DNA of 48,745 nucleotides, filler included, from Sphacelaria rigidula (taxonomy: Eukaryota), in assembly GCA_964200075.2 (NCBI GenBank). It is 2 parts of 2 records of this genome, joined end to end, with 100 filler letters (N's around TTAATTAATTAA, not from the genome) between each part and the next. Parts side by side here need not be neighbours in the genome. Positions count along the whole stretch, not along the records: positions 1 to 24,331 come from CAXNAA020000209.1; 1 more part is not named here. One strand, given 5' to 3'. Both the position numbers and the translations under genes were made by a program. The notes beneath the pieces are model-generated. The model made no database searches and was not told where the DNA came from. It saw only the letters and a list, made by a program, of their open reading frames with translations. Positions 2,390 to 35,451 of this stretch are shown here, in pieces; position 1 is the stretch's first letter, and each line of letters begins with the position of its first letter.

Positions 2390-3499
2390 CTTTGATGAAA
2401 AAAAAAAGGTACTTCAGGCGCACCTGTCTCAAGTCGGCAGCAAATACCCAAAGAATCCGCCGCAATACGCAAGTCCTGCTGCACAATCTCCCAGCCCAGC
2501 GAACGTTTACGCTGGAGCCTACCGTTTTCCACAACCGCTGATCAACACACGCATTCCAATATGAGTACTGCGAGCGCCTTCGTGACTTCAGGAGCTGACC
2601 ACCTCGCAACCGTTCCCACCCGCACCATAAGTAGGAGTTCAGGAAGTATAATTAGGCACCCGGAAGCAAAATTATGCATTTGATTGCGCTCCACGGTCTG
2701 GCTCTCGCAACGCCAGACTGAAAGAACCGCTCACTCGAACGACACATAATATAGCCCATCCCACCGTTGCGTTATGATGTTCAAGAACAAATCATTTGTA
2801 AAACAAGTATGGGTGAAACCTTTCCTGATCCTCGAATCGACTAGCACACTAGCACACCGGGGTGATACAAGACAAAAAAACGAACGTTTGACTTCCAAAA
2901 ACAATCCCGAGGTAGGTACCAAGCCAACAGAACGAACAGGACGTCACGGGACGAGAAAAAGGGTCGACTGCGTCGGACAAAAGACAGCACGCCACCCTAC
3001 TTGATACACACTTGCAACACGCGACACACCCATCATTCAACCTCACAGCGCCCTGTACCCTCCAACACAAAATCGCAACTTCTGCTCCTCATGCGCGTGC
3101 ACCATCCCTACACACGAAACCCCAGTGTTCTCCTTCCCCCCGCTTCGTTCCTTCGTTCGTCCTCTTTTGCCCCCCCCCCTCCTGGCCTCCCCCCTCCCCT
3201 TCAATCCGCGCGACCTCCGTCCCACAATCTTCAATAAAGATACCTAGATGAAACAATTCATAATATATACGTGGCCGGAACTGGATCGGCTACGCAAGCA
3301 TCCATTACATAGCAGAGCCACAATCACGGATCATCGGGGACTACATTTTTCCCATCTCTTTCTACTGCGCAAGATCCAAAGCTGCAGTTACATGTTTGGA
3401 TCCAAAGCAGCAGTTCCTGCTATGCCTGAAAACGTGAATTCGTGCGGCTGGAGTCGATTCGCCCGAGACCCGCTACCGTGTCGGGCAACGGGCTATTGT

Positions 3500-6400
3500 T
3501 CATTTGATAACCACGATCTGCTTGCTCCACCACTCCTCCATGGTCTTTTCCAGAAATCCTGCTTGGAATCCACTCTTCGAAGTCATGGACACCTTCTCTC
3601 TCTGCACCGCGTACACCCCGGAAAAGGCCGAGGTTTCCACCGTGAGCACCACATAGCCTTAACAATAATAGAATCAGAGAGGAGTGGGAAGGGGGTAGGA
3701 AGGCAGGGCAGCAAGAAATCCAAAATAAAATGTAGCAAAGCACGATGTGCGGTTTGAAAAAATCACAGCAGAGTACAGAGGAGGACAGGAAAAGCAAACT
3801 GGAACCCGCTGTCCGCACTGCACTGTGCATCCGTGTAACAGCGTAGTTCAGGAGGTCAGCCACAAGCACATCTTTTCTTCGTGATGCGACCCGCACACAT
3901 AATGAAGTGGGCACTCGCGTGCAAAGCCGTGCACCCTTGTGTACTGGACGTACTCCCCAAAAATTGAGTAACAACAACCTAAAAGTTGAACACGTGCAGC
4001 CAAGACGCGTTCGGTGATGGCGAGAACCGTACACATCTCGAAAAAAATCACACCGTGGACAATACATGGTCAATAGATGCAATAGGCAAACGGTCAATAG
4101 ATTCCACAGACAAGAAACGTACTGCATAAAGTATAGGCCCATTGCAACTATTGCCGGCCGGCATTGGTCGCAACAAGCCTATACTTTATGCAGTACGTTT
4201 CTTGTCTATTGCAACTATAATCTTGATCATATATTGTCCAAGGTGTGAAAAAGATACAAAATGTACCTTTCTTGAGGATGTTGGACTGTTGGTGGCCCCA
4301 ACCAAAGAGGATAGCCACGCCACCGGGCTTGAGCTGGTGAGTGTCGCGATCGCACATGGGGCCCAACAGCAAGCGGTAGCCAAGCCCGTCTCGCCTCCTA
4401 TAACCGAGCAAAGTGAACACAAAAACAGGAAGCAACAGAAGAATGCGAAAGAAAAAGACAAGGGCGATGAAACAAGTGACCGCAAAATCACCGGCACAAG
4501 CAATTTTGACGTACAGGCTGGTTCAGGGTGAACGATCGGAATTCAACTCCCCAGGAATCCTCCACGCCCTTTATGCGAGTTAGACGCTGAATCTTTGCAC
4601 ACAGATGCCCTGATATACCTAGAAGGACCGTTATGAATATTGGCTTTCGAGTTCTTGTTTTTTCGCCAGATATCCGGGGTCCCAGGAGGCGGAGTGAGAC
4701 ACCGCCTCTGGAACCCCTAATATCTGGCGAGGAACAAAAAATCAAAAAGCTCCATTCATACAGTTTTTCTCAATATCTAAGAGCACACGCGTGCAAAAAT
4801 TCGGGATGTAACTCGCGAACACGACGTGAAGGATTCCCCGTATGTGCGTTGAAATATACAGATATACGCAGAATTTCCCCAATTGATTATAGTATGCTAC
4901 CGACGTTTTCCTTCTGCGCCTGAGCTCACGCTGGCGGGTTGGGATCAGTCTTTTGAGTTACGCGACGAAACTGCGTACAAAAGTTCCTTGGACTACCTCG
5001 GGAAGAGCAAAATTTGATTGTTTCATTTTGAGGCAGTCTGTACCGGCTTCCTGTGGTCTCCACGCTGGGACCCTCGAAAGGTGGTAGAGAGCGGTTACTT
5101 TTCTTCAATGGTCCGTTTTCCCATTTGTAGCACTTATATCTACCAAATTACCAAGTTTAAGGATGATCGGAGCTTTTCTCCGAAAGTTACAGCGGAAAAC
5201 GTTCAGAGATTTCCAGGGTCTTCGATGCATATCATCAGTGGAAATCCGAGACCAAGTCCTACATCACCGAAATATCCCGTTTTGGAGTATAACTGGATCC
5301 CAAACACTTTATTTAAAAACTGATTTGGTTTTTGGGTTGGGATTCCTAGCTGATGGTGGTTACTAAGATTTGACTTGTAATGATTTTGGGTGCAGATTGT
5401 GGCGGGAATTTGCTTTTCTAATTGCAGAACAATTTGAAGACCCCTGATTGGCCAATCAACATTCTTACTGCCTACGCCACGGCAAAGGACGCAATAAAAA
5501 ACTGGCGATGTCACACTCTTTGCTTGCTCGTGGGGGTGACTATGATACTAAAAGTTTCCATCAGGTCAGTTTTGCGTTCTGTGTCTAGTGAGAATAATAT
5601 TTTGGACATTCACGCCGGGCCTGGCACCCATTGCGAAAATAACGGCATACAAAACGACTCGGGGGGGGCGCAAAATTTGGTTGCGAAAGAGGAAGTCACC
5701 ACTTGTGCAACAATGGGCAGTCTCTCCAGACATGGACGCGTGTTGACATGCAGTTGCACACACAAGCAGAAGTCCATCAAGACGAAACTAGTGAAAGTCC
5801 GCGAGACGTACAAAAACGGGTACTGAACTGTCGATTTTTTTATTATAGTGGTTATAAGACAGTCGCCACCCAAGATACAGAAAAAAAGAAAACGCCCTGA
5901 CCTGATGTTGTGGAACTGGACGTTCGAAGCGGTGGCATTGATGAAGACCACGCACACGCAACGGCTAGCACCGAGGCCCGTGTTGTTGCTATCCCTGTAT
6001 AGAAAGGAACAGATGACCCACGCAATACGCAGGCAGTGCACACGCCGTGATATATACATGGCTGACTTGACATGCGCTGCACGCTTCCCGTTACGCACGA
6101 CCATCCGCAATTTACACAGTGGGCTACCCTCTACCACTTGCGTGCGTGTCAACCAACCCAGCACGGTACCTTCCGCGGCGCTACTTCACTCCTTCCGAAG
6201 TGGGGTATACTACAATTCTTCCGCGCTGGAAAGACAGTCGGGCCGACAGATCGGAACGCCTGCCGCCCTGCAGTCAACGTTGCATCAATGATGATCGGGA
6301 AACCCAACATACACAGAGGGACCGTTTTACACTGAATCGAACACAGCGAGGACGGAATGATAAAATACCCAATGCATGTAACTTCACCAGTTTTGAACGA

Positions 6401-9400
6401 GCTCCCACGCAATCATGTCCAAGCGACACCAGTTTCCCACTCCTACGCTCTGCAGCTGTTTCTCCGCGCGATTCAGGATCTTCGTCGACGAAACGACAAA
6501 ACGTGAGAGCGAAGGAAACGCAACAGGAAAAACACACGAAACATATGGCACGTGAAAATCGAACCCAATGAAAAAAAAAAAAAACATGAGCGCAGGCAGC
6601 ATGATAAGCTGAAACGCGAACACGGGAAGGCTTGAGATGATGCATTTCCGTACACGTGTTATGGCCGCAGCGCACTGATTTTATCTATCTAGCCAGTATA
6701 GCCGTGCTTGACAATTGTCAAATCTATGACAGAATTACCCTAATCTCCCCTATATACTCATTACGACACCATGAAGTGTGGTCTCGACCGAGGGTATGAA
6801 TGCCTAGTACTGGGGGGAATCGCGGGGCGTCGGTGCAACCACATTCCCTCGTTTCATCTCGATTGTGATTAGTTACCCCCCCCCCCCCCCCCAAACATTT
6901 GTTTGAATTTAAAACTCCCCACTGAAGGAGGNNNNNNNNNNGGGCCTCCAGTTAAACCCCTTCCCTCCTTTTCACTCCGATTGTGATTAGTTCCCCCCCC
7001 CCCCCCCCAGAAAATATGTTATTGAATTACAGTCTGCTACTGAAAGAGGGTTGAAGTATTACGACAGTACGCACGAGCACCGACAGCCCAGAGTAAAACA
7101 AACAAGCTGAAGCCTAAGCGGGTGGCTGTCTACCGAGTTTGCCCGCTGTGGACATTAGGCAAAAGGGTAGAGAGCATATCCAGGTGCGTCTTCTGCACTC
7201 CAATTGGCGGGGTCCATACTCAATAGCGAATGCGTGTTCTCCGAACGGAAGGGCGACCAAATGATACCAGTCTCCGCTCAAACGGCAAGTATGGAAAGAT
7301 TAACGCGTGTCTTCCTCCAGCGGAACACAAGGTGTGGTGGCATTCGTCGGCAAACCTGAGTGGAGAGCTTGTCCAAAGCTCACCCATGAGGGTATAGTTC
7401 ATGAGATGTGGCCTTCAATGGGTGTTTCGGTCAACGTTGGGGTAAAGGGATTCAATGTACACCCATGTCAAGTGAAAACACCCTTCCCTTCCGTGTTTTA
7501 CAGCATCGTCGATTGACCGCAACGACGCTATAAAACACGCCACTCACGGCGTAAGCTAGGGAACCAGGTTATCGTTTCTTCTCGCTGGTGCTTTTGTGTG
7601 ATAACCAATGATGGTGGCCGACTTAGATCTTACTGTGCGACTCGGAGAACGTCAACTCCGAGCGAAGGGGACGCTCGTAATACGCTGTGTTGAAATGGTG
7701 AGACACCCATGAGGCAGTGTGACCCTTGGCTGTCTCTGGAAGTGGCGATCCCACAGAATAAAGCAATTCATACGAGGCTTGTCATTCACATGGAGCATGA
7801 CTCGTATGCCTCGGGTCGAACAATCTTCGCAGCATGCAGGTCATTCCTCACGCCACTCGCCGAACACACTACGGGGCTTCGTGCTTGGTGACCGCGAGCC
7901 TGGTTTGGCAAAAACCCGGCCTGCTCGGTCCCAGCCTTGTAGGGATGAGAAGTCAATGGCCTCATGACTACAGCATGCAAGACCATGAGTACATCACCTA
8001 CCCCCTTTATCTCTCCTCGGCAAATCAATCCTGGATCACTAGGTATAGACGTCGCTTCCGTAATGTTGCTCTCTCCCGGAGGAGGGTGCATAATAAATAA
8101 CGGGTCGCAGCGACGAACACCAAAAAGACAAGATACACGAACGCAACCGGCAACATACAGAGAACGGTCCTAAGGACCACATACCTGAGTGTCACTGAGC
8201 CGGAGGTACGGCACCTCCATGCGGTTGACCGACCCGAACACGTGATCATCAAGAGACTGCTGAACGGCGTTGCTGTGTGCTCTCATCGTCACCGTGGATG
8301 ATGACATCTTTTCGAGTCGGTGTTGGGGGAGGGGAGGGAGAGGACAAGCACGCACGACAAAAAACAAAGAGAGCCGGTGTAGCAAATGTGGGTAGAACAA
8401 AGAGAGCGGACCTCCGCAGTATAGACTGCGAGATAAGATGCCCCCCCAAAAACTGATCGGGGATCAAATACAAAACGCACCTCGCGTTCGCCTTCTGCCC
8501 CAAAAATATCTTGCGGAGACTTCATGCCTGTGGGATCGCCCATCTTCTCCCTGTGTTGGTAGAATTGACAGTAGAGCTCCTCCCTAAAACAATCACCATC
8601 AACGAGGACAGGTGTACAGGGCGGAGGCAGGCACGTTTAATCATGCTTGCGGCGCAAAACGTAAACCGAGCTGGATGGTCGCATTCGAGTGCAATATATC
8701 CGAGAGACGTTTATACACCGCACGAGAATATCGATATCGCCCAAAACAGAATATTGCTGCTCGACACATGTACGAGTAGCGTTCGAGTGCGAGACATACG
8801 GTGGAAGTACCAAGTAGGAGGGAGCCCATCGAAAAAGACTCATGAAGCACCTGCTAGCCTCCGAGGTAGCCTTGAGGGTGATGTCGCCGCCATCGTAGCG
8901 ACGGATAATCACGCCACGATCGACAGCCTCGACGCGCGATACCTCCTCCCACAACTTGGACACCTGCAGTACCCCCAGCGAACCAGGCCGACCACAGAAC
9001 AGGTTACCGTACGAACAAGAAAGTCGGATAAGGCTTCAAATTTCAGCGGGTATTCCCACGTATCATTCTAGAAATCCATGGCGCTCAAATCACTGGTACC
9101 GAATTAGAAGAGGGCGAATGTTCCGATGAGAACATAGAAAAAGTGCGCACTATTCTCCTTCTACTTTGATGTTGCACCCGCTTCGAGCTGACCAAAATAC
9201 ACCCAGTAGAGGTCCCCCAAGCACGACGTTTTTTTTACCGTTTCATGTATCTACCGATGCATGCCATCCCTGACTGGGACAGCACAGAAACTCCAGCCCC
9301 AAGAGGACAGCGCGTGGAGAACCGCAGATAGCGAGGGCACCAAACTCACCATCTGCATCGATTTGACCCCTTCCCTTCCGCTGGTGGCCTTGGCCCTCTT

Positions 9401-12400
9401 CAACGAATCGTTCTGACAACAACAACAAATAACAACAACGGAGGAGCGAGGGTGAAGCGCGTCGCGAGGGGAAACGGCTTCATCATCGCAAGCACACACA
9501 CCGGGGGATAGAGGGGCACGCACCAAGAACCGGGAGGGTGGCAAGCTGAAAAGCAATCACACTACCACGCGTCGAGACAACAAGGAATAAAGGAGGCGGG
9601 GAGGATTTTCAATACCCCGGATGAGGAGAAAGCGACAGTCATGAGTAACAACACATTTTGCGCTTGTAAGTCTCGAAGCCAAACGTGTGAACTCATGGAC
9701 CAGGTACGAGAAGGAATTGCTAAAAAATTCGTTTCGCGCGGGACACTGAAAACTTCAAGAGTGGAAACCAAACGAGATTGGATCGTCACTTCATGCAATG
9801 CACGCTTGAGCACTTCATTTACCGGGCGTCTAGAGCGTAAAAACCTTGGTATACCATACGTGAAAGCTTGGGAGTTAGCTCAATTTCATGCCAGTCACCT
9901 TGCACGTCATCGCCATTATTTGACGATCCTTCCCGCGAGGTGATTTTTTACTTTGACATCCATGTCCGTGCTTGGCACTATCCTGCACGCGCTTCGAATT
10001 TGTCAACTGCTGCACACGATATTGGAACAAGATCGGCACTCGAAACTCCACGTGACCTAACTTGGCCGGCTACAAGCCAAGGCAACCCCACCGGCCAAGA
10101 AAACATCCACACGAAGCATTCTGGACACGCTTACGACAAAGGCCAACAAAAGTGTAATAATTTGCCTCAGAGCATGACGCCGTCACGCCCATCAAGTATG
10201 GCACATTTACATCGCAGAAAAAAAATGTTTTCGGAAAAATCGCAACGGATGTGAGGGCGCGCAGCAAGAAGGGGCGTGCGCGCAACGAACTCACAACGCC
10301 ATATATTTCATAACATGATCGGGAACAAGTGGAACTCGATTTGAAGAGTAAATCTACATTTTTAGCCTTCCAATATTGACACCAATTTCCTAGATAAAGC
10401 CAAAACGAGCGAGACGCCGCAAAGCCTGCTAGGTGTCACCCACGTATACACTGTAGTAGAGTCACAAATAAAGCCACGACACTCCAGGAATGAGACGACT
10501 AACGCTTCGTCCAGTAATTACTTCTTTTCAGTGCAGTTGCCTTGTACCGTACGAACCAACCCTCAGCTTCGCCTTTTTCAGCATTGCACCCCGAGTACGC
10601 GTACCGCAGGTACGTGGAGTAGCGCAAAATTCGCCAAGCGACATTTTTACCCTCGGTCAATTTACTGTCTCTTTCAAGCAGTCAGACCTCAGGAATCGTG
10701 GGTTTGGGGATTAGAACCAGCGATGATTGATCGCACCCTTGCGGACACTCTAAATAATGAGGATCCCCTTCTCTTTTCATTATGCATGACTCACCAACTC
10801 TGCAACATAATTGTTTAGCATTCGCCTGCTCGCCTCCTCCACAAGCACAAACCGCACATGAGTTACGGAACATCAACCATTATGGTTCACCCACGAGTCC
10901 TCACTGGTGGTGCGCCCAGTCTTACTTTACCATTTGCGCGATGAAGCGAAAATGTTGACCGGCCTGCATGCTCCATCTTTCTCAAGAAAATGAAAGATTA
11001 ATCAATCCTGTCAAAATCATCACTTCATCTCAATTTTCGCCTCAGCAGTAACCTTCGCATCCCGCATACGTGAACCACCATCCCCTCTTTGCAAGGATGA
11101 TCATCGTCAAGGCACATACCTGACCCCTCTTCACGAGAATCACTCGGGTGTCGGCAAAGATGATGGTGAGGTCAGCGATCGACGTGTGCGATTCGTACTT
11201 CCCGCCTTTGCCGTCTCCTTTACCGTCCACGCCTTTTTCGACCAACGCCTGCAGAGTTTCGTTGATTTGTGTTTTAGGCGGCGTAGCTGTGATCGGCATG
11301 GAAGCACAATCGTGAGCGTGATTGTGTTATGTCATATCCACAGATTTAGCTGATACGTCGTGCAGCTCCGACTAAGTGACGAAGATACCAAATCACAAAC
11401 AAAAATTCCCGCCATTTCACACTTTCCGAAAAAAAAAAATGTATGTATATATATGGACTAACATGCAATATTCTGGTTTTTAGAAATGATGCTTCGTTTG
11501 TTGATTTTGGAACCCCTGGTCCTACGAGTACCTACACTTTGGTTGTTCGACGATTTCAGCAATGAACGAAGGACACCGTTACTGCTGCACTTCAATATTA
11601 CTGTGGGTATATACGCACGTGACACAGCCCCCACCGCAAGCGGCTAAAAGAGACGCCCCTTCCTCATCACTACGAAGTTGATCGACAGCGGATGAAGTCT
11701 GCTTGAACGAGTTTTTTTCTCGTGATGTATAGACTTACACGCACCAACCCACTAGTATTGTGACAGCACGTTTACGTTTATTCTGTAAACGAAGGTCTCC
11801 TCTGAAACGTTTTCTAGTCAGGTCACCGAAAACATGCGCCAACCGCTAATTTTACACAAGCATGTCCACGAATATGTATTGTACTCTCCCCACACCTATT
11901 TATACATAACAAACATGACGAACTACTGTTAACTTCACGTGCAAGTAACTCATGCCGCATCGTAACCTCACCGTGGCTCGCACTATCACTGTGATTGTTA
12001 GTGAAAAACTCCATATTTGCATTTTGGTATCATGCGTATCTTCAAATTGCCGATTTTCTTGACGGCGTTCGTCCCAAAGTACCGCACATCCAACCATGTG
12101 ACTGCCGCAGAGTTTATCTGTTTCATGACTAGAACCGATGGATTGCCATCCCTTTTTTTTCTTCATTTTCCATCCATGAATTAAAACCTGACACCGTCAT
12201 ACATGGACTATTTCACGGTGACACGTAGTATGTAAAGCCACCTACCTGAGCCTCAGCAGCCTCCATGGAGAAGGCGTCGAGGACCAACTGTCCCGTGTCA
12301 GCGTCCCTGCTTAACGCGCGCGGAGGTCTGAGCTGCTCCTGCTTCTGCGCGTCATCCGCCTCGTTGGAGATGCCCTACAACGATTGGACGGACACCGATA

Positions 12401-15400
12401 CAACAGAACAGCAGTATATTTCAGGGGGGTTCTAGTAGTGTTGTTCCCATGGTGCAACTGCTGACAAGATATTCAAAGCGTGTGACCACGGTTGGATCCC
12501 TGGGGGGGGTCAGTTGAAGTGCGACAATCAATCACCGATCAATCAATCAGCGAATGAGATATTTTAGATGTCCAATGAACCTTACACATGAACCAGAACA
12601 CAAAAGGGTCTCGACTCTTCCTCGCGGGACCGAGGCGGGAAAACGACCGATATCGCCTCCCGTGCTGCCCCGACTCGCTGTATAATTTGGGCAACATCGG
12701 TGTTTTCACAACTGACCGTAGAGCGCTTCACTTTTTGGGGGAAAGCGACCTCATGATCACAAATTCTTGCGCTAAAATTTAAGCATTGAATGTTATCACT
12801 GTGCGGACCGCATACCCCGAACTGCGGTTCAAGCAGGTTTGGAGACCTTAAAAACTCCTGCCCTCAGGCCAGATACTGAGACGTTTCTCACGCAGCAATC
12901 ATTCGAGATGCGTCGTAAGTTCCATGAAACTACATCAAGTCGATCAGGAACCGAGCATGTGTCAATAATCTCGACCAAGATAGCTGCTGAGGCCCGCTCC
13001 TTACAACAGACAAAAACAAAAAATCTGGAAAAATGCCTTCTTGGAGTTCCTACGTCGTTTTACGTCCTAAAAAGAGAGCTAGGTGTAGTTTGACACCTTG
13101 GAAAGACTTGCTCTACTAGTTGAGACGGTTCCAGGACATCCTTCCGTTCTCCGGTGGCCGCAGTTTTTATTCTGGCCCGAAGCGAATTTTTGTCCGGGAA
13201 CGGTCAAGTCCAGAGGAAAATGGCGACTTTTTCTAGATTTGACTGTTTTTGACCGCTCTTGGACGAAAAAAAATGTTTGGTCAAAATAGAAACTGCGGCA
13301 ACCGGATAACGGGAAGATATCTTGGAATTGCCTCAACTAGTGGAGCAAGTCATTCCGGGGTGTCAAACTCCGCCTAGCTCTTTTTTAGGACGTAAAACGA
13401 CGTAAAAGCTCCAAAAAGGCAATTTTCTAGATTTTTATTCTTGACTGTTATGAGGAGCGGCCTGATGTCGGGCGTCGAACTTTGCGTGCTGAGGACAAAA
13501 AATGTAGTATGAAAAATCAAACAAGAAATAAGCAAACAACGCGTTGCTACGCGGGAGCACCTGTTTGAAAACTGCACGTAAATGCAAGCCAGTATGGCCA
13601 CTCCTGTGCGAGCATCTGCCCCGAATTTCCAAACAGCACCTCAGCACACAAGTTTGAACGTGAAATTTTGATATGCGCAGCGGGATCTCGGGTACAAGGG
13701 AGGGGGGGGGGGGGGGGGGAAGAGTATCAACTGCCGAACGGCCAGAAGCCATGCAATAGTGAAATAAAAAACAACAGAGACGGACACAGTTCACTAACCT
13801 GCACAACTGAAACGGCAGCGTCAGAGACGCCCACGACCGGTTTCACTACAGCCCCCACGAGCCCCTTGCCTACGCCCTTGAAGAATCCTCCCACCCCTGC
13901 ACTCTTGGCGCCCTTGACCGGGGCAGTGAAGATGCCGCCGACACCGGAGGCAATCCCGCCCGTAATGTTCGAAGCTCCCTGCACGATGCATTGTGGGAAG
14001 GCCGACGCGATGAGGTTGAGAGGTGTGCTGTTGTCCTCGACGGGCGGGAACTTTTGCCCGTATGGTCGCTACGCAAATGTGAGCACTGCGCATACCGTTG
14101 ACAGCAAACAACTGACGGCAGCTGGCGCCGTATCCCAAATATCAAAGAGCACATACAGCTCAACTTTCATCATCACGGGAGCCAGTATACCCGCTAGTAT
14201 GGACTAGAACAGGGAAAATACCTGCACGAAGCCATGTCCAACGCCACCCTGCTTGGCCATGTTCTTGTTCTTTTCTCTCTCTCGCTTTGCCTTGTACTCG
14301 TCGTCGAAGGAGAGCATCGACACCGTGTCGCTCACGGCACCGCCGACGCCAGCGACAGAGCTGAACACTCCGTGCACCGTGCCTGGGAACCGAACGCAAG
14401 AGCACACGAAAAACATTTCATTTGTGGAAGTCATAAAACTCCCGGTGACGGTAGCAACCGTCGGAGGTGGCCGATGACTTTCCTCGGGTTATGTAGTCAA
14501 GGATTGACCGTAAGTCGTGGGGTTGAGGCAAAGTGGATCACTCGGGAAAGCTCGACGAGAGCCAGCGAGTTAGCCTGATGACGAAATCTGAGAGTCTTGG
14601 TCAAGAGTGATGCCCCAGGAATAGACAGCAGTTCGCTGGGATGATCCCTGTTACCTTGGGGTCCCAGATCCGGCTGTACAGATATGGGAGAGTTTCGGGG
14701 CTCCTGCAAAACTTGCCCCTGTAACAGCCGTTCAATAGGTTACACGTCATGAAAGGAAATCTCTCCGCACATGCCGAGATGGCGATCTCCACACATTCGA
14801 CACTAAGCAAATATCAAGACCAGCCAACGCGAACGACTGAAAAAAAAACGACAGTTCAGACTAAACACGAGATACCAAGCACCTACAAAGCGGAGGGGGA
14901 ATGGTACGCTCAAGTATTACAAGCTGGTTCAGATTGAATACCCAAAATTTATTCCCCGGCTAACGACGAACGCAATACCCAGCCAATATGCACAAATATG
15001 GTATCATACTGACCGCAATGAACAGACGAAAAGGGTGACATCGTCGGATTTTTTTTCAAGGCTATCGCGGTGGCGCTATGGACAAAAATATGTCTCGACC
15101 AATCAGCGCCTTTCAAGTTGTTCCGAAATTGGAAAACACGAATTCCAAGTCCAATTTCCACCGAATCTCCGCATGGTTCAAATCGCAGTAACCGTCATCA
15201 GCTTGGGAATCTAACGGGAGAAACAGATTCTAAAACGGTTCCAACTGGGTCGAATTTTGCCCCAAACCGTAATATTTCGGTGATGTGGAGCTTTGGCGTC
15301 GTCTAATTTCCACTCCTGATACGTACAAAAGACCCACGGAGCCTCGAGACGATTTCCCTTTTATCTGTTGGAGAGAAGCTCAGATCGTCCTCAAACTCGG

Positions 15401-18400
15401 CAGTTTCGTAGGTACTGATACTCCAAATGGAGAAATTATATTCTTGGCAAGATTTCAAAGGTTCTCCGTTCTCTACCGGCTTCCGGGGGTCCCAGCATGA
15501 AGACCCCAGGAAATCGGTACGGAATGCCCCAACACCAAAATTTCGATATTTGAGGGTCACGTGGTATCCCAAAGAACATGTGCACCAATTTTCGTTGCTC
15601 AACTCGAAAAACTGAATCGGCTGGGTCTTGTACCGTACAAACAACCCCCCTAAAGGGCGATTCTGTACTTTAATCAAGTAATCGCATGTTTTTTTATACT
15701 TCAGCGCATGTTTTGGCATTTCCTCACGCCGTTTTTTCGAGTCAGACCACGAAAATTTGCATACATGTTCTGAAGGGCACTTTCTGAAACTCGAAGACCG
15801 TTTTTTTTTTTTTTATTGCTGGTGGCTGTTTATCCAAGGTTGCGGTTAACCCACTTGACCGGGGGAGGGGTACAGATCCCGACTATCTCGACACCAAATA
15901 AGAAAAAGAAGGCCTTCGAGTTTTAGATAGTGTCCTTCAGAACATGTGTGCAAATTTTCGTGGTCTAACTCGAAAAAACGGCGTGAGGAAATCCCGGGGA
16001 ATGAATTTTGGGCGTTCAATCTGAACCAGCTCGTAAACTTCACATTTTTTCAGCACCTCTTCAGGTACAGCCCCGTAACATATAATACCCGATATGTGGC
16101 CATCTCCGTAGTCGAGAACGCAATATACCCAAAAATCAACAGGAACGCATCCGATATAACTGAAATTACCTATTTTTCCCCACAACCGTAAGTGAAACTT
16201 CAAGAGGACCTGGAAATGGCCAAAAATAGTTCATAGCTGCGTGAAAGTGTCATTTTGCTCGGCAACTCTGGGGCGAAGCCCACAGGTAGCTGCTTCTTCC
16301 GACTCTTTGCCGGAAACAATCCCCACCCCGCAAATATGAACACCGCGAAATTTCCATGTGCAACTTTCGACAAGACACTCGAGGACGTAGGGGAACAGGT
16401 GAGTCGTGTCTTTCCCGCGCACGTTAAGCTTTCTGCAAGTTGCAGTAACCGCTTTTCTGCCCTGTGTTTACTCTGCATGTTTCCTTGCCCTCGACTCCAA
16501 CGAAGCTTCTGTTGCTTTTTTGTTCCCCATTACAGATGCGACTGCCCCCGGAACATGATACGTCAGGTTCAGTGACACTTCCGATCTACCGACAACCTGC
16601 ACGGTGCCTTCACTTGCACATTTCGGGAGAGGTGACAGCATTGCCCTCTCTGCTCGTTCTGTGAAGTGCCAAGCACCTCCAACGACAGGTCATAAACACA
16701 CGCAATACTGCAAGCAGGGTGGGAGGCATGGCACGTGTGGGTTGCCTGCTGTGTGCACCAGCACGCGAAATCTCTCCAGTGCTCATGGCTGCGCCTCAAA
16801 CATCTAGCGCAGTTCTTACCCTTGACGAAGCTCTGAGCGCCGCGGCCAACTCCTTCGAAGAATTCTGCCGGTCCTTGGACTAGTCCTTGCGCCGGTGCGT
16901 ATACCAGCGCCTTGGCTCCCCCGCCGACGTTGCTGATCAGATCCGCGGGGCTTCCCAGAGCACGGATGGAGCCCACCAAAAACAGCACCTGGCATATTTA
17001 GAAGCGAAGTACAACTCCCGTTTAGTTCATCTTTGACGGAAATTTCGCAAGCTGCCAGCTAGCATTTTCATCTACCCGACAAAACGACAAACAAACCTGG
17101 AAATAGGAGGACAAAACACGAGCTGTCTGACGGTGTGTGTATTTGAGCAAGATATGCATACAGGTTACAACTTTGAGTTCACACCTGATGAACATTCAGA
17201 AACACTTGTTCATCTGGAAACATTAAAAGACAAGTAAATATCGCACGCGTCAGTAAACGCCCGGAGAAATAGCCACATCCCCTTGCGAATGAGGGCAGGA
17301 AGACAAGCACGGTGTTATAACCTGACGCTTGCAACTGTCGTCCCTCCGACCCTACCTTGGACTCTTTCACAGCTCGGCAGCAGTGGTAGTTATCCGGATA
17401 CATGGCACCCCGCAAGTCCCAAGAACACAATGAAGAGCCCCGGAAGGAGGGAGAGGTCAGCACACAAATGTTATACAGCATCTACAGAGGTAGCAGGTAT
17501 GCACCAAGGTACAGAGTGTGAAAAGGAACAACGATAACCTTCTGTGACGTAAACCGGTAAAGCGCGTTAGTATTTACTGTACCTGAGAGGTAGCGGCGAC
17601 GGTGTAGTGGCGGCTGATGTTCTTGGAGACGTCTTGAATGCTGCCGAAGGTATCTTCGACGAGGTATGACGCAAGATCCACGTTGCTCTTCACCAGGGTA
17701 GGAATCTTGTTGATGATGGGCATGGCGGCCGCATCGTACAGTTTCTGTTTGCATTGCATGGGTACAAGGAATTCAAAACAAGATAAATGGTGAAAATATC
17801 AAAACCACTTGCGAGTATTTGGCTCCATTTCGAGAGCTGGAGAACATTGATCGCATGCCAACGTCAACTGCACGCTGTTCGCATTCACCTCTTCAGTATA
17901 GCGGCCAAGATACTTCTGACTGACATCTTGAGGCAACCCGTACCGTGATTGGGAAGAGTGGCGGCGATGGGGAGGTTAAATGAAATCCGAAGGTGGTGAT
18001 ACTAATAAACATGGCCTAGAGAGGAGCATTGGACACGTGGACGAACCCAAGATACTCTCGTAGTGCATCGCGGGGGAAACGTTATACGACAAGGGTCAAC
18101 AAGACACGGAAAGCTAGCATGACTGCCGATGTTGGAAACAATCACTAGGTGCGAATCACAGGGGGGGAAAACATCTCTGCGAAGGGCAAACTACACACGG
18201 TGCTTCCAAAGGAGTGCTCACGGTAGCCATTGACCGTCACGCATAATCCACCCTCCCTCCAGACATTTGCATATACCAAGACCTAACTACTTTTCCCACG
18301 ATGCTCCCGAACGACGGCGAACTTTGGACAACATGTCACGTGTAAACCAGTGGGGGTAGACACTTTCTCTGCCAATGGCCAACTAAACACGGTGTTTCAA

Positions 18401-21400
18401 AACATGTCCTGATGTTCGGCAACGAGTGTCATGTGGCAGTCACTGGCGAGGCATGTAACCTGCCAACAGTAAACTGAGCACGGTTGGTGCCCGAATTGAA
18501 TGCTGATGGCGAGAAGGAACACTAACGTCAAGGAGACGGAGAATACATTCGTTAACAAGGGTTTACTGAACACCAAGATTCCAACCGGCGGCTGGTGGTG
18601 GCCAGCGGCCATCATACATAACCCGTTGGGAGGAAGTTACGTCTGCCAAGAGTTGGTGTACGCATCACACCATGGACAATATATTACATTGTTTAAAAAA
18701 GCACCACTTATAGTATGGAATCTTATGTCTGCTGAAATAGACACCATGGCCGATACTGTACACGCAACACGTTTTGACAACGTAATCTATTGTTCAGGGT
18801 GTGGGATGCATAGATGTACACAAATGAACACGGGGCGCAAATCGTGATCCGAACACGGCAAATATTCAGCCAATAGACCTTCCATAGATTGCTGAAGTGG
18901 ATGAGAGTGCGACAGTCACGACCGATCCCTCATTATCCTTGCCGCTGCTGCTGCTGCCGCCGCCGCTCTCAGTTTCAGTACGGTGCGCATGCGTGACTAC
19001 GTGCACTCCTGTCGCCACACCATGGTCTGTGACCCACACCCCAGTAAAAACGGCACACTCGATGCGTGCCACCCTGCCCCTCAACCTTGCACATCTACGT
19101 AGGCGATGTCTGGATAGATTCTCTCCACGAATGTTTTGGTAACAATCAAGCATGGTCTGTGTTCATGCCATTTACCGCCAAAGTGCTACACGGGTTAACG
19201 AGCAACATGGTTTGGACGATGATGGCAGTGCTCCTGAAAACCGAAACAATATTCACGGTCTGGAGTTCTCATGAATAACATCGTCTCAACGCGATGTTCA
19301 GGTACATACTTTCTTCTCCTTCCCGTGCTGAACTAATCACATCGGCATACAGGGCAAGTGACCAAGCCACCAGCGACCAAGCAAAACCCAACTGGAGTCT
19401 TGGTTGCACTTGCTCTCGAAAGCATGTCCAGTCACTGATGTCACTGCGCTTTATACCGTGCCAACACCAAGTCAAGAGCACTTCAATTCTTCCATGTTAA
19501 GGGATTATGGACTCATACATTTGAATCTTTCTTCGTTGCGACTCGATTCTACTGTCAGATGTCATTGCTTGAAGCCCGGGCTCCCATTGTTTGTTAATGC
19601 CCCCATCCCAACCTTTCAACACACCGACGAAAAAAATGTACCACACGCAGCAGCGGAGAAAACAAGGGGAATCGCGCTCACGCGAGGACTAGGTGACGCT
19701 GCAGCAATGGCAATATCCATCACTCCTACATAGCCTCTATTGCCACGGCTGGCACCAGCGTAGGCACAAGGCGCCAACAGCTACGGTACACAGGAAACAT
19801 GTAGACTTTGCAGCAGTCGCTAGAAGCTGATGCCGCTAAGTGCATGGATGCGGCTGGGACACTTCTCCGTAAAAATATGCGATTGTTGTTGACCCGTGAT
19901 TGCTTCCGACTCAGTGACACTCGCCGCGATAGCCCCCCCCCCCCCCCAAAACACGTGCCTGGTTTGGGGAGGCAAAATCTTCGCGTGAATCGAAATAGAG
20001 AGAGCCGAGAACAACGAGCAGCTGGGGATTCCCACGCTTGGGTTCGTTCTCGTCAATGTCGCCCATATGAGGCGCTTCATGGAGCCTGAACCCAAACATC
20101 AGGCGCTGTATGCCCATTTGTTTCGTGACACTTTTGGTCTGGGCGTTTTTGGGGGGGGGGTCTCAACACCCTCGAAGACGCGCCGCTGCTACCCTGGCAT
20201 CGTGCTGGGAGTTACGTCAGTGACAGGTCCGCGGACAGATGGTTACACTGTATGTGAAAAACGGTACCGTACGATGCTATGCTGTGACCTACATAAAATA
20301 TGACCCGCAAATGATTTTCAGCTAGTTGCCGAGTGTGTATTTGATGCTCATCGTTTGCGTCATTTTCTATGCGCATGGCCAGTCAGAGAAGAGTGATCTT
20401 GGTCGTTCCTGAGTCTCAATCTCTGAAGGATTACACTAAAATTGAAAGGAACACGAGAAAAAAGACGATGACATAAAAATCTTGACTCGACGCCAAATCA
20501 CAACAATAGCGTATAAAGCACGATGCAAGGAAAGATGGTCATCCGACAACAGCCATTTCACGACGTTTCCATTCCTACGGTCCCATACTGTTCAGCAAGC
20601 TCTCACGTTGGAAGCGGGCGTCCTCATGTAGCTGATGCGACACATAATCGGGTGGAACCGCAGAGTCTTGAAGTACTTCCGCTCGATGCGGGCTGACCGT
20701 CGAACCTGGACGAACACAACAATCGCAGCCACACAAGCGCATCGACACGTACGAGGAAGACTTGTTTTTGAGACAAGTCAGTAGCCCGAACAAGAAAAAA
20801 AAGCAAGACCACAAGGCGGCTAGAAAGACTGTCATCATCAGTCACCCCGCCGACGGTGCGTGTAATGATGTCGGTGACCCTGAATCGCACGCGTGCGGTC
20901 GAAGGGATGAGCAGTGTTGATCACCAACCCGCCTACCGCAGCCAATGACGAAAAAAATCAACCAACCAACCGACGCAGCCATCAACCAATCAACCAATTC
21001 AATCGAACTCAAACAGCAACGTTACAGAACACTACCAAATGCATTATGACAATACGGCTTCAAGGAAGTGACCATGGCGCGTTCAAGCCCTCGACTAATT
21101 ATCCCCACATCTACGATTTCTGAGGCCTGTGACGGTTTAAGAGACAACCAACTAGACTACACAGGCCTGATTGCTCGAAAAAGATAATGAGGTTGATCGC
21201 GGGACAGAACATTCCAAACGCAATTTGGCGCGCTTTTTTACGGGCCTGGGGAGGGGGTTCCTGGGGTGCAGCGCTGGAAACAAGGCCCAAGCATTGATTC
21301 GTATGGTACGAATAAATTACATTCAACATTCAACAGGAAGGATTCTTCAAACGAACCCCGTTTTGTCCGAACCTTCGACCAGATTCCAAAATCACACCAC

Positions 21401-23503
21401 AAGGAACAACAGCTCACCACTCCGCCACACCTGCTCAAACACAAAGGTGCCATTTACACCTGCGGGTGATTCGTGATAATTATTAACGAGTCTATTCCCC
21501 CCCCATCCCCCCCCCCCAAAAAAAAAATATCCGATTTCTTTGGAAGAAAGACGATTCTCCAAAATATGTGAGGTCAGCTTTCCCAGTCAGCTGAGGCAAT
21601 AGATCAGTCCAAGACTGACTACAGAGTTCCGGGAAAACCCAGTATCGGAAGTTTTTTCAGTACTTGTTTGGGTGGGGGGATAGGGAAACAAATCTATTTT
21701 TCCCGGGAAAAAGTTGAAGAAACAGCCTGAGGGAACAAGAGCCCGTCAATAACAGCCCTGAGCAGCGTAGTGGTTGTTTATGAGGGTGCCTAGGGTGGTT
21801 TTTGAGTTGACTCTCACCTGGTGGCCATGCTAATCCCCTTGTTTCATCTGTCTTTCTTCTTTTTTTGTTCCTTTTGTTTTCTTTCGATGTGCTTCTGAGC
21901 ACATCAGATTTTTTTCTTTTTCATTCCGTTGAACTTGGGGAAGCTACTTCTCGAATGTCTTCTCGGCGTCTCTCTTCCTATCTTCATTTTTGTAATATTT
22001 CAGTTGATGCGTTTGTTCTTGTAACCAGGCTGGAGTCTGAGAAAAAATGACCAGGACTCTTTATATCTTATAACGAACAGTAGGGACGGTATTGGAAAAT
22101 CGAGCCTACGTCTGTGACCATGGGTTCGAGAGATTGGACCAATGTGCAGAAATGACAAAAAAGAAATCGGCGGCAAACCTTCGACCACAGCAGAAAGAGT
22201 GTTTGTTCCAAAACGCTCGAACGAGATCCGAAAATGCCTCACACCGGGGACATCTCCTCCACCATGCCTACACAGACCGTTCGCTGTAAGACTCCTGCCC
22301 AAGAAAACAAGGCCCCCGTAAAACAAAAATCTGGCGAAAAATTGGCTTATCTTGCAATGTCCGGAACACAGACGCATACCTCGTCGACGTCCACAAATCC
22401 GCCGGGTATCGCCGCCGCGCCCCTCTCCAACACCTCCGCGGTGCGCTTGGCCACCCACGCGCGGCTGTCCAGTTTGTGCTTCCGCATCTCCAGGTAACCG
22501 CTGACTGGCTTGAACAGTACTAATAGGTGCAGCACGCTGGCTCTGTCTGCCATGATGTCTACCTCCAGCATTCTGAGGTCGAGCCACGAGGCAATAGGGT
22601 CGAACAACGAAGCACGAAAACCAAAAGCATGCCTTATTTCAAGCGGGTTTTGCTTTTCAAGCCAGGCGATTCGCTTAGAATGCGTACTCTGCGAACACTG
22701 CCCGCGCTAACCCATGACACTCGGTTCAATGCGGGCCCTGCTCTCTGCAAATTGCGCACTCCTATTCGAACGTAATGACACGCGCACTTCGGCACTACTT
22801 GTGGCAATAAATACTGAAAGAAAAAACCGCGAGACTTACCGGAATGCAACGTAGTTGAAGTGAGCCGTGTTCGTCGTCTGATTGTTCTCCTTAATGAGTG
22901 ACAGCGCAAGGAATGGCGTGGTCTTCGAGTCCTTGCCCCGGCGCTCGCCTTTGGTGTCTGCTTCCTCAGCTCTGCCGCTCAGGAGCACCGGATATAGTCC
23001 GTCTGGGATGTAATTGTCCACCTGCGTGTACATGGAGCGTTGAAAACGCACACACCTTCAGAATTCACTTACTACGACGTTTGAACGATTTTTGCATGAA
23101 CCCATGCTCTTGGATGATGCCGGGGCGACCGACACGGAAAACAACGCTGATACGGGCTGGGCCTATCCCCCCTTAGTACTCTGCTGCATCACTTTTGTCT
23201 ATTTGGGTGTGTGTGGTGGATGCTATTACGATCTCAACAGATGGGAAAAGTCGAGGAGGGAAAACCCGATGCACATAAGCTTCTCTGTAATGACAGAGAT
23301 GGAAAATCAACAGGCCTGAATGTTGAAAAAAATGAGCCCAAACTGTATCACAGACGACAACGTTTACATGCCAAAACTGCTACCATTACCCTCTTTCAGG
23401 GCTTACCCACCACCATCTGCCCGCCTTCGCGCGAGTACACACCTACCTGCATTGAGCCGATGGAGGCTTGAACGGAGGACAGTCTGTCTTGTGACAGTTT
23501 CAC
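3500..23503 (-). CDS. VPS13: VPS13-family bridge-like lipid transfer protein, C-terminal ~778 aa (5'-truncated at the contig join). 18 exons: 23447-23503, 22840-23021, 22380-22572, 20607-20705, 17583-17744, 16820-16988, 14222-14382, 13799-13978, 12246-12374, 11120-11248, 9350-9412, 8851-8963, 8481-8583, 8185-8307, 6388-6479, 5902-5994, 4267-4397, 3500-3657
   Basis: All 17 introns are GT..AG and phase-compatible, giving one 2337-nt open frame ending in TGA at 3500-3502. Motifs typical of the VPS13 C-terminus: 'IGSMQ-VDNYIPDGLYPVLL', 'YFKTLRFHPIMCRISY', 'LVGSIRALGSPADLISNVGGGAKALVYAPAQG', the Gly-rich ATG2_C/APT1-like 'GGIASGVGGIFTAPVKGAKSAGVGGFFKGVGKGLVGAVVKPVVG', 'LRPPRAL', then a PH-like region. 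Confidence 0.92.
4049..4247. mobile_element. Palindromic MITE, CACACC-TIR family, 8-bp TSD (hAT/P-type)
   Basis: Termini cacaccgtggacaat / attgtccaaggtgtg; flanks aaaaaaat / aaaaagat; perfect internal 31-bp stem 4108-4138 with 4177-4207. Confidence 0.8.
4540..5490 (+). mobile_element. Composite repeat: ~315-bp palindrome (4540-4855) followed by a ~550-bp body
   Basis: Hairpin centred near 4697 (cgccagatat..gaggcgg / ccgcctc..atatctggcg). Body ~4940-5490 aligns by eye with the reverse complement of ~15060-15620. Confidence 0.72.
7695..8005. repeat. Dispersed ~310-bp repeat beginning ATGGTGAGACACCCATGAGGCAGTGT (copy 1)
   Basis: Colinear with 27211-27535 and 45298-45603; no TIR or TSD seen. 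Confidence 0.85.
12484..12550 (+). repeat. SINE/LINE-like 3' end with (AATC)n tail; other copies ~26921-26987 (+), ~41003-41060 (-), ~28770-28810 (-)
   Basis: Shared ccacgg.tg.at.cct..gg..tcagtt.a.gtgc..c followed by aatcaatc repeats. Confidence 0.65.
12990..13465. mobile_element. Foldback element, ~475-bp imperfect palindrome in a VPS13 intron
   Basis: aggcccgctcc...ggagcggcct termini; tacgtcgttttacgtcctaaaaa pairs with tttttaggacgtaaaacgacgta; arms pair almost to the centre near 13225. Confidence 0.87.
15060..15995 (-). mobile_element. Second, inverted copy of the composite repeat (palindrome 15716-15995 plus body)
   Basis: tttcctcacgccgttttttcgagt pairs with actcgaaaaaacggcgtgaggaaa; body shares 'gctgggaccc', 'acatcaccgaaatat', 'gattcc..agctgatg..ggttac' with the 4540 copy. 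Confidence 0.72.
18666..18803. mobile_element. MITE, CACACC-TIR family (138 bp)
   Basis: Termini cacaccatggacaat / attgttcagggtgtg; flanks gtacgcat / ggatgcat (6/8); body similar to the 40828 and 44069 copies. Confidence 0.75.
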
Positions 23504-24331: not shown

Positions 24332-24431
24332 NNNNNNNNNNNNNNNNNNNNNNNNNNNNNNNNNNNNNNNNNNNNTTAATTAATTAANNNNNNNNNNNNN
24401 NNNNNNNNNNNNNNNNNNNNNNNNNNNNNNN
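24332..24431. other. Artificial scaffold/pseudomolecule linker
   Basis: 44 N + TTAATTAATTAA (stops in all six frames) + 44 N = exactly 100 nt. The VPS13 gene to the left and the nucleoredoxin gene to the right both lack their 5' ends. Confidence 0.95.
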
Positions 24432-34100: not shown

Positions 34101-34748
34101 TCAGCGGGAAGAATGACCAATGCAACCAATCACGTAGCAGCGATGTATGCGTTGACAACAGCGGGAATAGATCAGCAGTGCATTCCACGGTAGACACTGC
34201 GGTACAGCCACTCTTCCGGTTACGGTGTGCGCGAGCAGGTTCTACTTTGTAAATATACTACAGGCTGGAAGGGAAGCCTAGACTTGGATGTTGTGGCCGC
34301 ACTCGCTTTCAAAACGCTCGTTTCCCCTTCATTGTATTGTCATCCTATTGTGGCGTGGGTGCAAGTATAGTGGCGTCACCCATGAGGGTCATGAAGACTG
34401 CTGCGTGCCTGCTGGAATCAATCCGTTTTACTTAGGCTGAATGATTTATTCACGCAACGTTGTCCTTGTAAGCAGAGGACAGCCACCTGCTACTCGCCGT
34501 GCAGGTGCTCTCACCACTCGTTTTCGATTTCTGTTGGCGGTTTTACAAAGAAAGTTAATCTGGCGGTTGACAGCTCGTCGCGTTAAAGTAACAGTAAGCA
34601 GCTAGTGATGCGGGTACGCAGACATTCAATTCGACAGCAGGTGGGTCACCCCCCTCGACTGGTCACAGCTGAGCTCATGAGCAGCAGGGCTTCTTGTTAT
34701 CATAGTGTGGAGGAGCGGCGGGGTCTTCGCGAATGTCCAAGCTTCCAT
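31125..34748 (-). other. Possible spliced orphan gene or lncRNA, head-to-head with the CLK gene. Exon-like blocks 34650-34748, 34487-34530, 33544-33608, 33225-33287, one ending at 33122; further blocks near 31520-31590 and 31125-31190
   Basis: Pyrimidine-rich acceptors (ttttttttccag, ctcctttag, ttattttccag, tttttttcag) and donors (gtgagc, gtaatg, gtatgc). The first five blocks join in frame from ATG 34748 (MEAWTFAKTPPLL...), but the peptide resembles nothing I recognise. Confidence 0.3.
31849..32960. mobile_element. Non-autonomous ~1.1-kb DNA transposon, TA-flanked
   Basis: TIRs aggctgggccagcctaaaagcggattt / aaatccgtttttaggctggcccagcctg; left end lies in a (TA)n run, right end is followed by TA; internal inverted repeat ~31885-32055; no transposase ORF. 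Confidence 0.78.
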
Positions 34749-35451
34749 TTCGCGGTGATGATCAAGTTTGCGCTGCTTGACACTTCAACCAAGACAGAAG
34801 GGACGAAACGCGATACTCGTAAGATACTCGACGGCGTCCTACAATACAGTGGTTTGTCGCGTCGCCGCGAGCGTAGAATTCCAGTCCGTAATGAGCCCGT
34901 TGTATCAGTGAAGATGTCTTTTCTCACGGCGCGCACTCACAATCCGCAAGTTTCAATAACACTGGGCGTTAATTCCGTTTGCACCCACGTCATCGCTAGT
35001 GTCTACCGTAGTCAGCTGGCATGCCGACTAGAACAGTGTGTGTCTCGTGCACAGCAAACAAATGGACAACACGCCGTTTTCTCTCAACCACAACGCGCTC
35101 CGCGTTACGTACGGTACTACTCTCTGTGCGTATTCATCTCGTGTGCAATACATCACGGTACTTTCACCGCCTCACTCTCTCATATTCCCGTTTGCGTTGA
35201 TCCTCGTTTCTGCTTATAAACTGACAGACAATATGGTCACCAACAGCAAAAAGCAAAGACGGTTGCGGCTCTCGTGTCAAATAGCTGGAACCGGGTCATC
35301 ATCGAACCACCATCGATTCTAGAATTGTAAGGCTTGTCGCTCTTCCGTGTAATATCCCACGTGGTGCTCTGCTCTGTGCCCTTATTACCACCGACAGGTG
35401 AACCCCCAAGTATCGGTTCACCACCCGCAGTTGCCCACCAAAATATTCCAC

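Follow-up and report, generated by a model that had tools for sequence, protein, structure and literature searches.

The 3′ end of a VPS13 gene in Sphacelaria rigidula raises the question of whether this bridge-like lipid-transfer protein carries, beyond its PH domain, a further C-terminal module related to membrane-binding toxins, and what such a module would do. The far end of VPS13 proteins is known to be targeted through amphipathic helices as well as through adaptors of the VAB and PH domains. The DNA analysed here, hereafter the window, is a 48,745-nt stretch of S. rigidula (GCA_964200075.2) in which two records are joined with N filler. The window contains the 3′ portion of a VPS13 gene from an intron-rich stramenopile that is probably a brown alga, and the initial annotation had proposed that its product ends in an extra domain with an actinoporin-like pattern. 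The parts of the gene are given below in the direction of transcription.

20607..23093, minus strand: upstream VPS13 exons, with an exon start at 20607 (joint 17744|20607), an exon at 22378-22572 and a tblastn match to VPS13 at 22839-23093.
13799-13978, 14222-14382, 16820-16988 and 17583-17744, minus strand: four exons of an ATG_C-type, Gly-rich helical region, to which VPS13 homologues match colinearly in tblastn (13799..17744) and whose joints are present in contigs.
8481-8583, 8851-8963, 9350-9412, 11120-11248 and 12246-12374, minus strand: five exons of a PH-like domain.
8185..8307, minus strand: linker exon after the PH-like domain, with joints 6479|8185 and 8307|8481 in spliced contigs.
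From ~8253, within exon 8185..8307, minus strand: first conserved element of the extra domain, an H-V-F-G-S-V-N hairpin.
6388..6479, minus strand: two-helix exon preceding the beta-sandwich, from its joints and its alignment with helices 62-74 and 80-97 in the model of the homologue P0024.
5902..5994, minus strand: exon running from the end of helix 2 through strand 1, where a conserved N-x-T turn lies, into strand 2 (joints, alignment).
4267..4397, minus strand: exon for strands 2-4, with a long loop, P-G-G-V-A-I-L-F-G-W, leading into strand 4 (joints, alignment).
3500..3657, minus strand: last coding exon, for strands 5-9, with the stop codon at 3500-3502.
3244..3499, minus strand: 3′ UTR, at least; the X1 contig is present from 3244, the X3 contig from 3304, and the X2 contig spans 3000-3660, over the UTR.

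The transcript data comprised three RNA-like runs (X1-X3) from a single study, compared with a DNA-like run (X5). The RNA status of X1-X3 is a software guess from the runs, and it is supported by intron-less contigs that are present there and missing from X5. Each of the three runs contained one spliced contig (2605, 8156 and 8451 nt) that precisely omits the introns 3658-4266, 4398-5901, 5995-6387 and 6480-8184, and the same contigs omit ten more introns, reaching 20606. All of these introns (14/14) are bordered by GT and AG on the minus strand; 14 VPS13 joints are among the 15 joints listed, with 134 others beyond these, and not a single X5 contig (0) contains any of the 14. The exons of the extra domain are spliced onto VPS13. 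The four terminal exons that had been proposed (6388-6479, 5902-5994, 4267-4397 and 3500-3657) are real, with AG/GT borders on the minus strand and a stop at 3500-3502; their borders are identical in the spliced contigs from all three RNA-like runs, their translation equals the peptide given in the initial annotation, and both the 8185/6479 junction and the linkage to the upstream VPS13 C-terminal exons are present in the RNA-like contigs.

Joining the 14 exons from 17744 to 3500 yields 1806 nt, corresponding to 601 open codons and a stop. The product consists, in this order, of ATG_C-like helices, the PH-like domain, the linker and ~180 additional residues; a helical ATG_C-type region with a PH-like domain after it is the arrangement expected of a VPS13 C-terminus. 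Furthermore, it aligns end to end with residues 840-1442 of P0012 (E 1.3e-75) and residues 2044-2637 of P0021 (E 9.6e-73). Pfam detected VPS13_VAB in P0015, P0021 and P0012 and additionally VPS13_M in P0015 and P0021, while the full-length carrier P0073 (3529 aa) encodes VPS13_N (E 6.7e-56), VPS13_M and VAB, an architecture to which those of P0076, P0015 and P0021 are similar. For the gene of the window, the RNA contigs extend ~6 kb further 5′. Within the window, tblastn with seven homologues (E <= 1) identified no colinear VPS13 exons beyond 23093, and the same homologues located no counterpart of the N-terminal two thirds of the gene there. A Pfam search of 145 stop-to-stop minus-strand ORFs between 3400 and 24400 returned no VPS13 family and only chance matches below the cut-off, a failure attributable to exons too short for single-exon ORFs to be recognised; 14 of the other long ORFs in the window gave no Pfam family.

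A post-PH domain is present as first suggested, its size being ~180 rather than ~150 residues (product residues ~422-601). The four exons originally assigned to it belong to it, and it starts one exon earlier (8185-8307, from ~8253), so that five exons encode it. Its N-terminal start is a conserved [Y/H]-x-F-G-x-x-N hairpin, in which the H-V-F-G-S-V-N of S. rigidula aligns with the family's Y-x-F-G-x-x-N and which has a pLDDT of ~94 in the P0024 model, and the family's most conserved motif, G-F-x-x-G-F-L-E-K...W-W-S-K, is encoded in the last exon (3500..3657). A phmmer search with this exon produced 21 matches at E <= 0.001, 20 of which end within 5 residues of the C-terminus, and further searches gave 20 and 13 matches. 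A word-based search with the same exon among proteins of 92-2000 aa had found no match, which is weak evidence and superseded by the phmmer result. Searches recovered ~49 cluster representatives of the family, which has no Pfam model. Every long carrier that could be identified by Pfam is a VPS13, and the family profile places the domain as a single C-terminal copy in all 23 carriers of at least 440 aa and in the product of the window, with no second copy detected inside carriers. The S. rigidula domain retains 20 of the 27 domain columns with a conservation of 90% or more. These results show the domain to be a conserved module at the C-terminus of a VPS13 subfamily. It is split in current gene models, one brown-algal record containing the last exon only, as a 48-aa 'unnamed protein product'.

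The relation to actinoporins had been proposed by eye from an ordered set of motif elements (N-x-S/T following strand 1, Gly, P-x-G...F and G-x-V). These elements do lie on columns conserved in the family, but their likeness to actinoporins cannot be demonstrated beyond chance because the profile searches found no actinoporin. Pfam searches of 25 family members at E <= 10 returned none of PF06369, PF06355 and PF21230, with six unrelated matches each confined to a single member, and a search of all PDB sequences with the family profile (E <= 10) yielded four unrelated weak matches (best E 0.32) and no actinoporin. A cluster of language-model neighbours, in which PF06355 occurs in 20% of members (score 0.83), provides a lead only. 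As no profile links the domain to these families, the likeness would be one of shared fold and not of family membership.

Fold models were obtained for homologues sharing 31-33% identity with the S. rigidula domain. The model of P0024 (pLDDT 90, pTM 0.82) predicts, after a short hairpin, a pair of helices and then a beta-sandwich of nine strands, the fold that actinoporins and aegerolysins have in common with Nakanori, a lipid probe from a mushroom. With this model, all 20 Foldseek matches at E <= 0.001 fall in the actinoporin/aegerolysin/Nakanori fold group, among them ostreolysin A (E 3.6e-5), which for the modelled homologue bears out the actinoporin/aegerolysin-type sandwich that had been anticipated. 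In a structure comparison Nakanori was the best match, two other proteins of cytolysin/lectin fold scored 6.3-6.4 and unrelated folds scored at most 5.8. Two outcomes had been set beforehand as counting against the original claim, a different fold and exons unjoined to VPS13, and both came out in its favour; the actinoporin-like interpretation of the domain is supported.

Nakanori, a non-lytic sphingomyelin (SM)/cholesterol-binding protein of Grifola frondosa (PDB 5H0Q, PF21230), has an extra N-terminal part, and the combination of an actinoporin-like sandwich with an additional N-terminal segment is also seen in the modelled VPS13 domain. The two differ in that the VPS13 domain terminates a polypeptide several thousand residues long, while Nakanori stands alone with 202 residues, and no sequence relation between them could be detected.

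Actinoporins form oligomeric pores via release of their N-terminal helix, and the second helix together with an aromatic cluster makes up their phosphocholine/sphingomyelin site. The domain model has the beta-sandwich flanked by an N-terminal helix that characterises actinoporins (FraC, equinatoxin II, sticholysin II, Fav, HALT-1 and bryoporin; PF06369), but identity to them is ~9-13% without a profile match. Superposition covers 122-127 of the 175-202 residues of actinoporins and Nakanori and leaves ~50 toxin residues unmatched, and the sandwich of the P0024 model contains only 3-residue helical turns in place of the long second helix. The missing helix and the partial superposition suggest that the canonical actinoporin lipid site may be absent from the domain. 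Unlike actinoporins, the VPS13 domain is cytosolic and tethered rather than secreted. Aegerolysins (ostreolysin A/pleurotolysin A, RahU, Cry34Ab1 and AfIP-1A; PF06355) share the compact beta-sandwich with the modelled domain, but lack N-terminal helices, show no profile match to it and act as free 13-17 kDa proteins, frequently together with MACPF partners.

Two earlier findings narrow what is new in this arrangement. In Plasmodium falciparum, VPS13L1 is reported to recruit PfAegerolysin (PF3D7_1364000), which has two aegerolysin domains, through its PH domain at the target membrane, and this likewise places an aegerolysin-type sandwich beside the PH domain at the C-terminal, target-membrane end (PMC13036008). 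The sandwich resides there in a separate protein whose HEPN-like domain binds the PH domain, in contrast to the cis fusion after the PH domain found here. For red-algal VPS13R (Leterme et al., 2023), an unnamed beta-sandwich is described downstream of the C-terminal PH domain, a likeness of position to S. rigidula VPS13; in the text and six supplements searched, that sandwich is neither named nor likened to actinoporins or aegerolysins (PMC10683392). Literature searches found no paper pairing VPS13 with Nakanori, and a search for VPS13 and cytolysin gave no title on a VPS13 domain among the matches listed, whereas at least two papers mention VPS13 together with aegerolysin.

We slightly favour the reading that the C-terminal sandwich is a lipid-recognising, membrane-docking module of the lipid bridge. 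As in characterised members of the fold, loops on one end of the sandwich would identify a specific lipid, or lipid phase, in the membrane, and this recognition would help to dock the bridge on its target membrane. We infer lipid binding and membrane targeting by analogy with these proteins, and the N-terminal tether to VPS13 together with the likeness to non-lytic Nakanori makes a binder more likely than a pore former.

The fold alone is not proof of lipid binding, as illustrated by the VAB repeats of VPS13 itself. These repeats, likewise nine-stranded sandwiches within the same protein family (PDB 7U8T), are reported to have a lysin-like topology, yet to bind peptides rather than membranes (PMC8978259). 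The S. rigidula domain is not itself regarded as a VAB repeat, given an hhalign probability of 0.07% from a rough alignment of the VAB region. The topology reported for VAB repeats is consistent with a sandwich that serves as a VAB-like protein- or peptide-binding adaptor, recruiting a scramblase or another receptor rather than a lipid, a role that we consider rather unlikely.

Other readings give the domain a different activity. In one, which seems quite improbable, VPS13 and a domesticated pore-former fold would form an old and widespread pairing in which the fold recognises the acceptor bilayer and loosens or scrambles it for lipid entry, going beyond passive anchoring; pairing in trans in Plasmodium and cis fusion in ochrophytes, and perhaps in red algae with VPS13R, would suggest such an old partnership. 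That the domain perturbs the acceptor bilayer by insertion, oligomerisation or thinning, as a domesticated pore former easing lipid entry or scrambling where the bridge ends rather than only anchoring it, is very improbable. In its favour, nearly all structural neighbours are pore formers or their partners, and the Plasmodium report suggests that membrane-embedding aegerolysin domains coordinate with bulk lipid delivery by VPS13L1 (PMC13036008). Against it, Nakanori, the top structural match, is non-lytic, and aegerolysins are reported to require a MACPF partner for pore formation. Furthermore, the helix that is freed in actinoporins is here tethered N-terminally to VPS13 and has a moderate hydrophobic moment (muH 0.35); we infer that it may be functionally amphipathic, but the tether and this value argue against pore formation by helix release, and pore formation by the VPS13 domain is unlikely. 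Least probable of all is a role as a lectin, whose glycan might be carried by a glycolipid or a glycoprotein; in its favour, fungal fruit-body lectins of the same fold bind glycans, and lectin-type accessory domains recur in VPS13 proteins.

If the domain is a lipid-recognising docking module, a sphingolipid- or sterol-sensing toxin-fold module built into the protein would represent a new, direct and lipid-based solution to VPS13 targeting. The domain is small and easily expressed, and is therefore convenient for testing lipid-based targeting. The analysis defines a family of ~180-aa domains without a Pfam model. As a fused gene, the S. rigidula VPS13 is an independent counterpart to the association of VPS13 and aegerolysin reported for Plasmodium in 2026 (PMC13036008), and the link between lipid bridge and sandwich fold becomes testable in a second lineage. 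Should the domain bind a specific algal lipid, it may furthermore find use as a probe for that lipid, in the way that Nakanori and OlyA are used to detect SM/cholesterol.

The four stretches that the initial annotation assigned to the end of VPS13 (6388-6479, 5902-5994, 4267-4397 and 3500-3657) are open on the minus strand with AG and GT at their borders, and the last ends in a TGA stop at 3500-3502. The locus is intron-rich and eukaryotic (~49% G+C), with exons too short for Pfam, and consequently no VPS13 family was identified by Pfam in 145 single minus-strand ORFs between 3400 and 24400. The stretch is contained in eight public runs, four of which were compared over 3000-22900: three RNA-like runs (X1-X3, small runs from one study, RNA status guessed by the tool) and one DNA-like run (X5). 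Each RNA-like run contains one long contig (2605, 8156 and 8451 nt), and all three contigs omit 3658-4266, 4398-5901, 5995-6387, 6480-8184 and ten further introns up to 20606. Every one of the 14 introns reads GT..AG on the minus strand, none of these 14 splice joints occurs in X5 over the same range, and the 14 joined exons form 1806 nt (601 open codons and a stop). The spliced contigs match the proposed exon borders exactly, including the 8185/6479 junction singled out earlier for an RNA check, and together with the open 601-codon frame they confirm that the four exons are joined to VPS13. The product comprises:

About residues 1-224 of 601: Gly-rich ATG_C-type region
Following region of about 170 residues: ends in a helix and M-G-D-P
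C-terminal part: a linker followed by an additional domain of ~180 residues

The introns also contain repeats. Regions ~7696-7813 and ~19940-20095 show very high depth in all four runs and are connected by contig joints (e.g. 19945 to 7813), and therefore represent a high-copy repeat family in two introns of the VPS13 gene. The last intron contains a palindrome at 4097-4218 (perfect centre, 61-nt arms, 84% complementary, no spacer), which looks like a dispersed MITE-like repeat; summed depth of X5 in its bin is very high, and contigs break with loose ends beside it at 4062 and 4218. Within intron 6480-8184, two 72-nt direct copies (6824-7013), 75% alike and both with a long run of C at the end, lie on either side of a 10-N assembly gap (6932-6941).

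Transcript contigs run about 6 kb past 22572. tblastn with seven homologues identified nothing colinear past 23093 in the window, which leaves the 5' two thirds of the gene unplaced; the missing colinear exons in 23093-48745 could reflect a scaffold misjoin or very short, divergent exons. N stretches at 24332-24375 and 24388-24431 (reported as assembly gaps at 24332-24431) lie in the filler between the two records, and AT skew flips sign around 24-30 kb. Long overlapping open frames occur on both strands of a G+C-rich island (34000-38000, 55-61%), including:

35353-37482, plus strand, 709-codon open frame

These frames have a high content of Pro, Ser, Ala and Arg, match no Pfam family and are likely either a by-product of composition or part of a low-complexity gene.

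The extra domain, which follows the ATG_C-type helices and PH-like domain, was initially described as ~150 aa in four exons. It opens with a conserved [Y/H]-x-F-G-x-x-N motif encoded in exon 8185-8307, so that its ~180 residues are distributed over five exons; the four exons stand, with start and size revised. When the 52 aa of the last exon were compared by phmmer with 1.84 billion representatives (E <= 0.001), 21 matched, 20 of which end at most 5 residues from the protein C-terminus. Profile searches added 20 matches among proteins of near length and 13 among longer ones, for a total of ~49 cluster representatives carrying the domain. It is single-copy and C-terminal in all 23 carriers of at least 440 aa, and the window retains 20 of the 27 columns conserved at 90% or more. 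Two homologues, P0012 (E 1.3e-75) and P0021 (E 9.6e-73), align with the 601-residue C-terminus from end to end. Pfam identified VPS13_M and VPS13_VAB in P0021 and P0015, VAB in P0012, P0048 and P0058, and also VPS13_N in the full-length carriers P0073 (3529 aa, E 6.7e-56) and P0076 (3541 aa, E 1.7e-49), with no family over the extra domain.

Carriers with a named source comprise two Ochromonadaceae sp. CCMP2298 proteins and, from the brown alga Choristocarpus tenellus, an 'unnamed protein product' of 48 aa that is equivalent to the last exon alone (P0003, CAM9931686.1). The nearest matches share 70-79% identity with the window within the last exon, which suggests a brown alga or close relative as its source. 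Public models of the closest relatives (P0001, P0002 and P0003; 48-143 aa) hold only the last exon, so the VPS13 proteins modelled for these algae are probably cut short. A Pex24p-family Pfam match (E 1.5e-10 to 2.4e-5 across three carriers) just before VAB in P0015 (1434-1569), P0021 (911-1015) and P0073 (1638-1742) may represent another accessory module in this VPS13 subfamily.

The fold was modelled on homologues of the window protein rather than on its spliced product. The model of P0024 (221 aa; 33% identity to the extra domain, E 2.7e-33), based on a 33-row alignment (pLDDT 90, pTM 0.82), contains a hairpin, two helices (62-74, 80-97) and nine strands. The domain of the window is mildly basic (pI 9.0). 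All 20 Foldseek matches in the PDB at E <= 0.001 were ostreolysin/pleurotolysin A, actinoporins (Fav, FraC, sticholysin and HALT-1), Cry34Ab1, IP-1A or Nakanori, supporting the actinoporin/aegerolysin-type fold first proposed by eye. In the structure comparison, the next proteins in rank were a fungal lectin and TDH (6.3-6.4), both of the same general fold; unrelated folds scored at most 5.8 and the VPS13 VAB domain 3.9. Sequence profiles of the family did not reach the actinoporin, aegerolysin or Nakanori families; the tie of the modelled domain to these families is one of fold, and homology is possible. Protein-language-model neighbours with Pfam Nakanori, Aegerolysin and Anemone_cytotox scored just 0.81-0.87 and are thus leads only. 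The best family-profile match in the PDB, the fly protein 4r9p_A, was non-significant (E 0.32) and is probably due to chance; its alignment includes the W-x-x-h-D...W helix and N-x-S strand.

VPS13 C-terminal ATG_C helices and the PH domain are described as engaging the target membrane or its adaptors (PMC7613979; PMC8978259), and characterised proteins of this fold recognise membrane sphingolipid, often with sterol (PMC10259817). From these two properties we infer, with slight preference, that the extra domain would serve as a lipid-recognising anchor giving added specificity at the acceptor end of the bridge. It is rather unlikely that the domain is an adaptor for peptides in the manner of the VAB repeats, which have lysin topology. 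An active membrane-perturbing module is quite improbable: in the window, the hydrophobic moment of the helix preceding the sandwich is only moderate (0.35), and Nakanori is described as recognising sphingolipid without lysis, perhaps owing to an extra N-terminus (PMC10259817). Least probable is a lectin.

Levine's survey describes many VPS13 accessory domains without any sandwich after the PH domain; for the extreme C-terminus it names UBA domains alone, in some algal VPS13s (PMC7613979). Literature searches that paired VPS13 with these fold families (actinoporin, aegerolysin, Nakanori) or with cytolysin turned up no account of such a domain inside a VPS13. In Plasmodium, the VPS13L1 PH domain is reported to bind the HEPN-like domain of a two-aegerolysin-domain protein at the inner membrane complex, according to its authors the first BLTP/pore-former interaction (PMC13036008, 2026). 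Whereas that partner is a separate protein, the predicted sandwich in the window is fused to VPS13, a cis counterpart. The modelled fold supports reading the protein as a VPS13 whose accessory domain is new but of known fold. Ochrophyte plastids are of red-algal ancestry. The unnamed beta-sandwich after the PH domain of red-algal VPS13R, its type not stated in the searchable text or supplements (Leterme et al., 2023; PMC10683392), could well be this same domain, and that would agree with such an ancestry.
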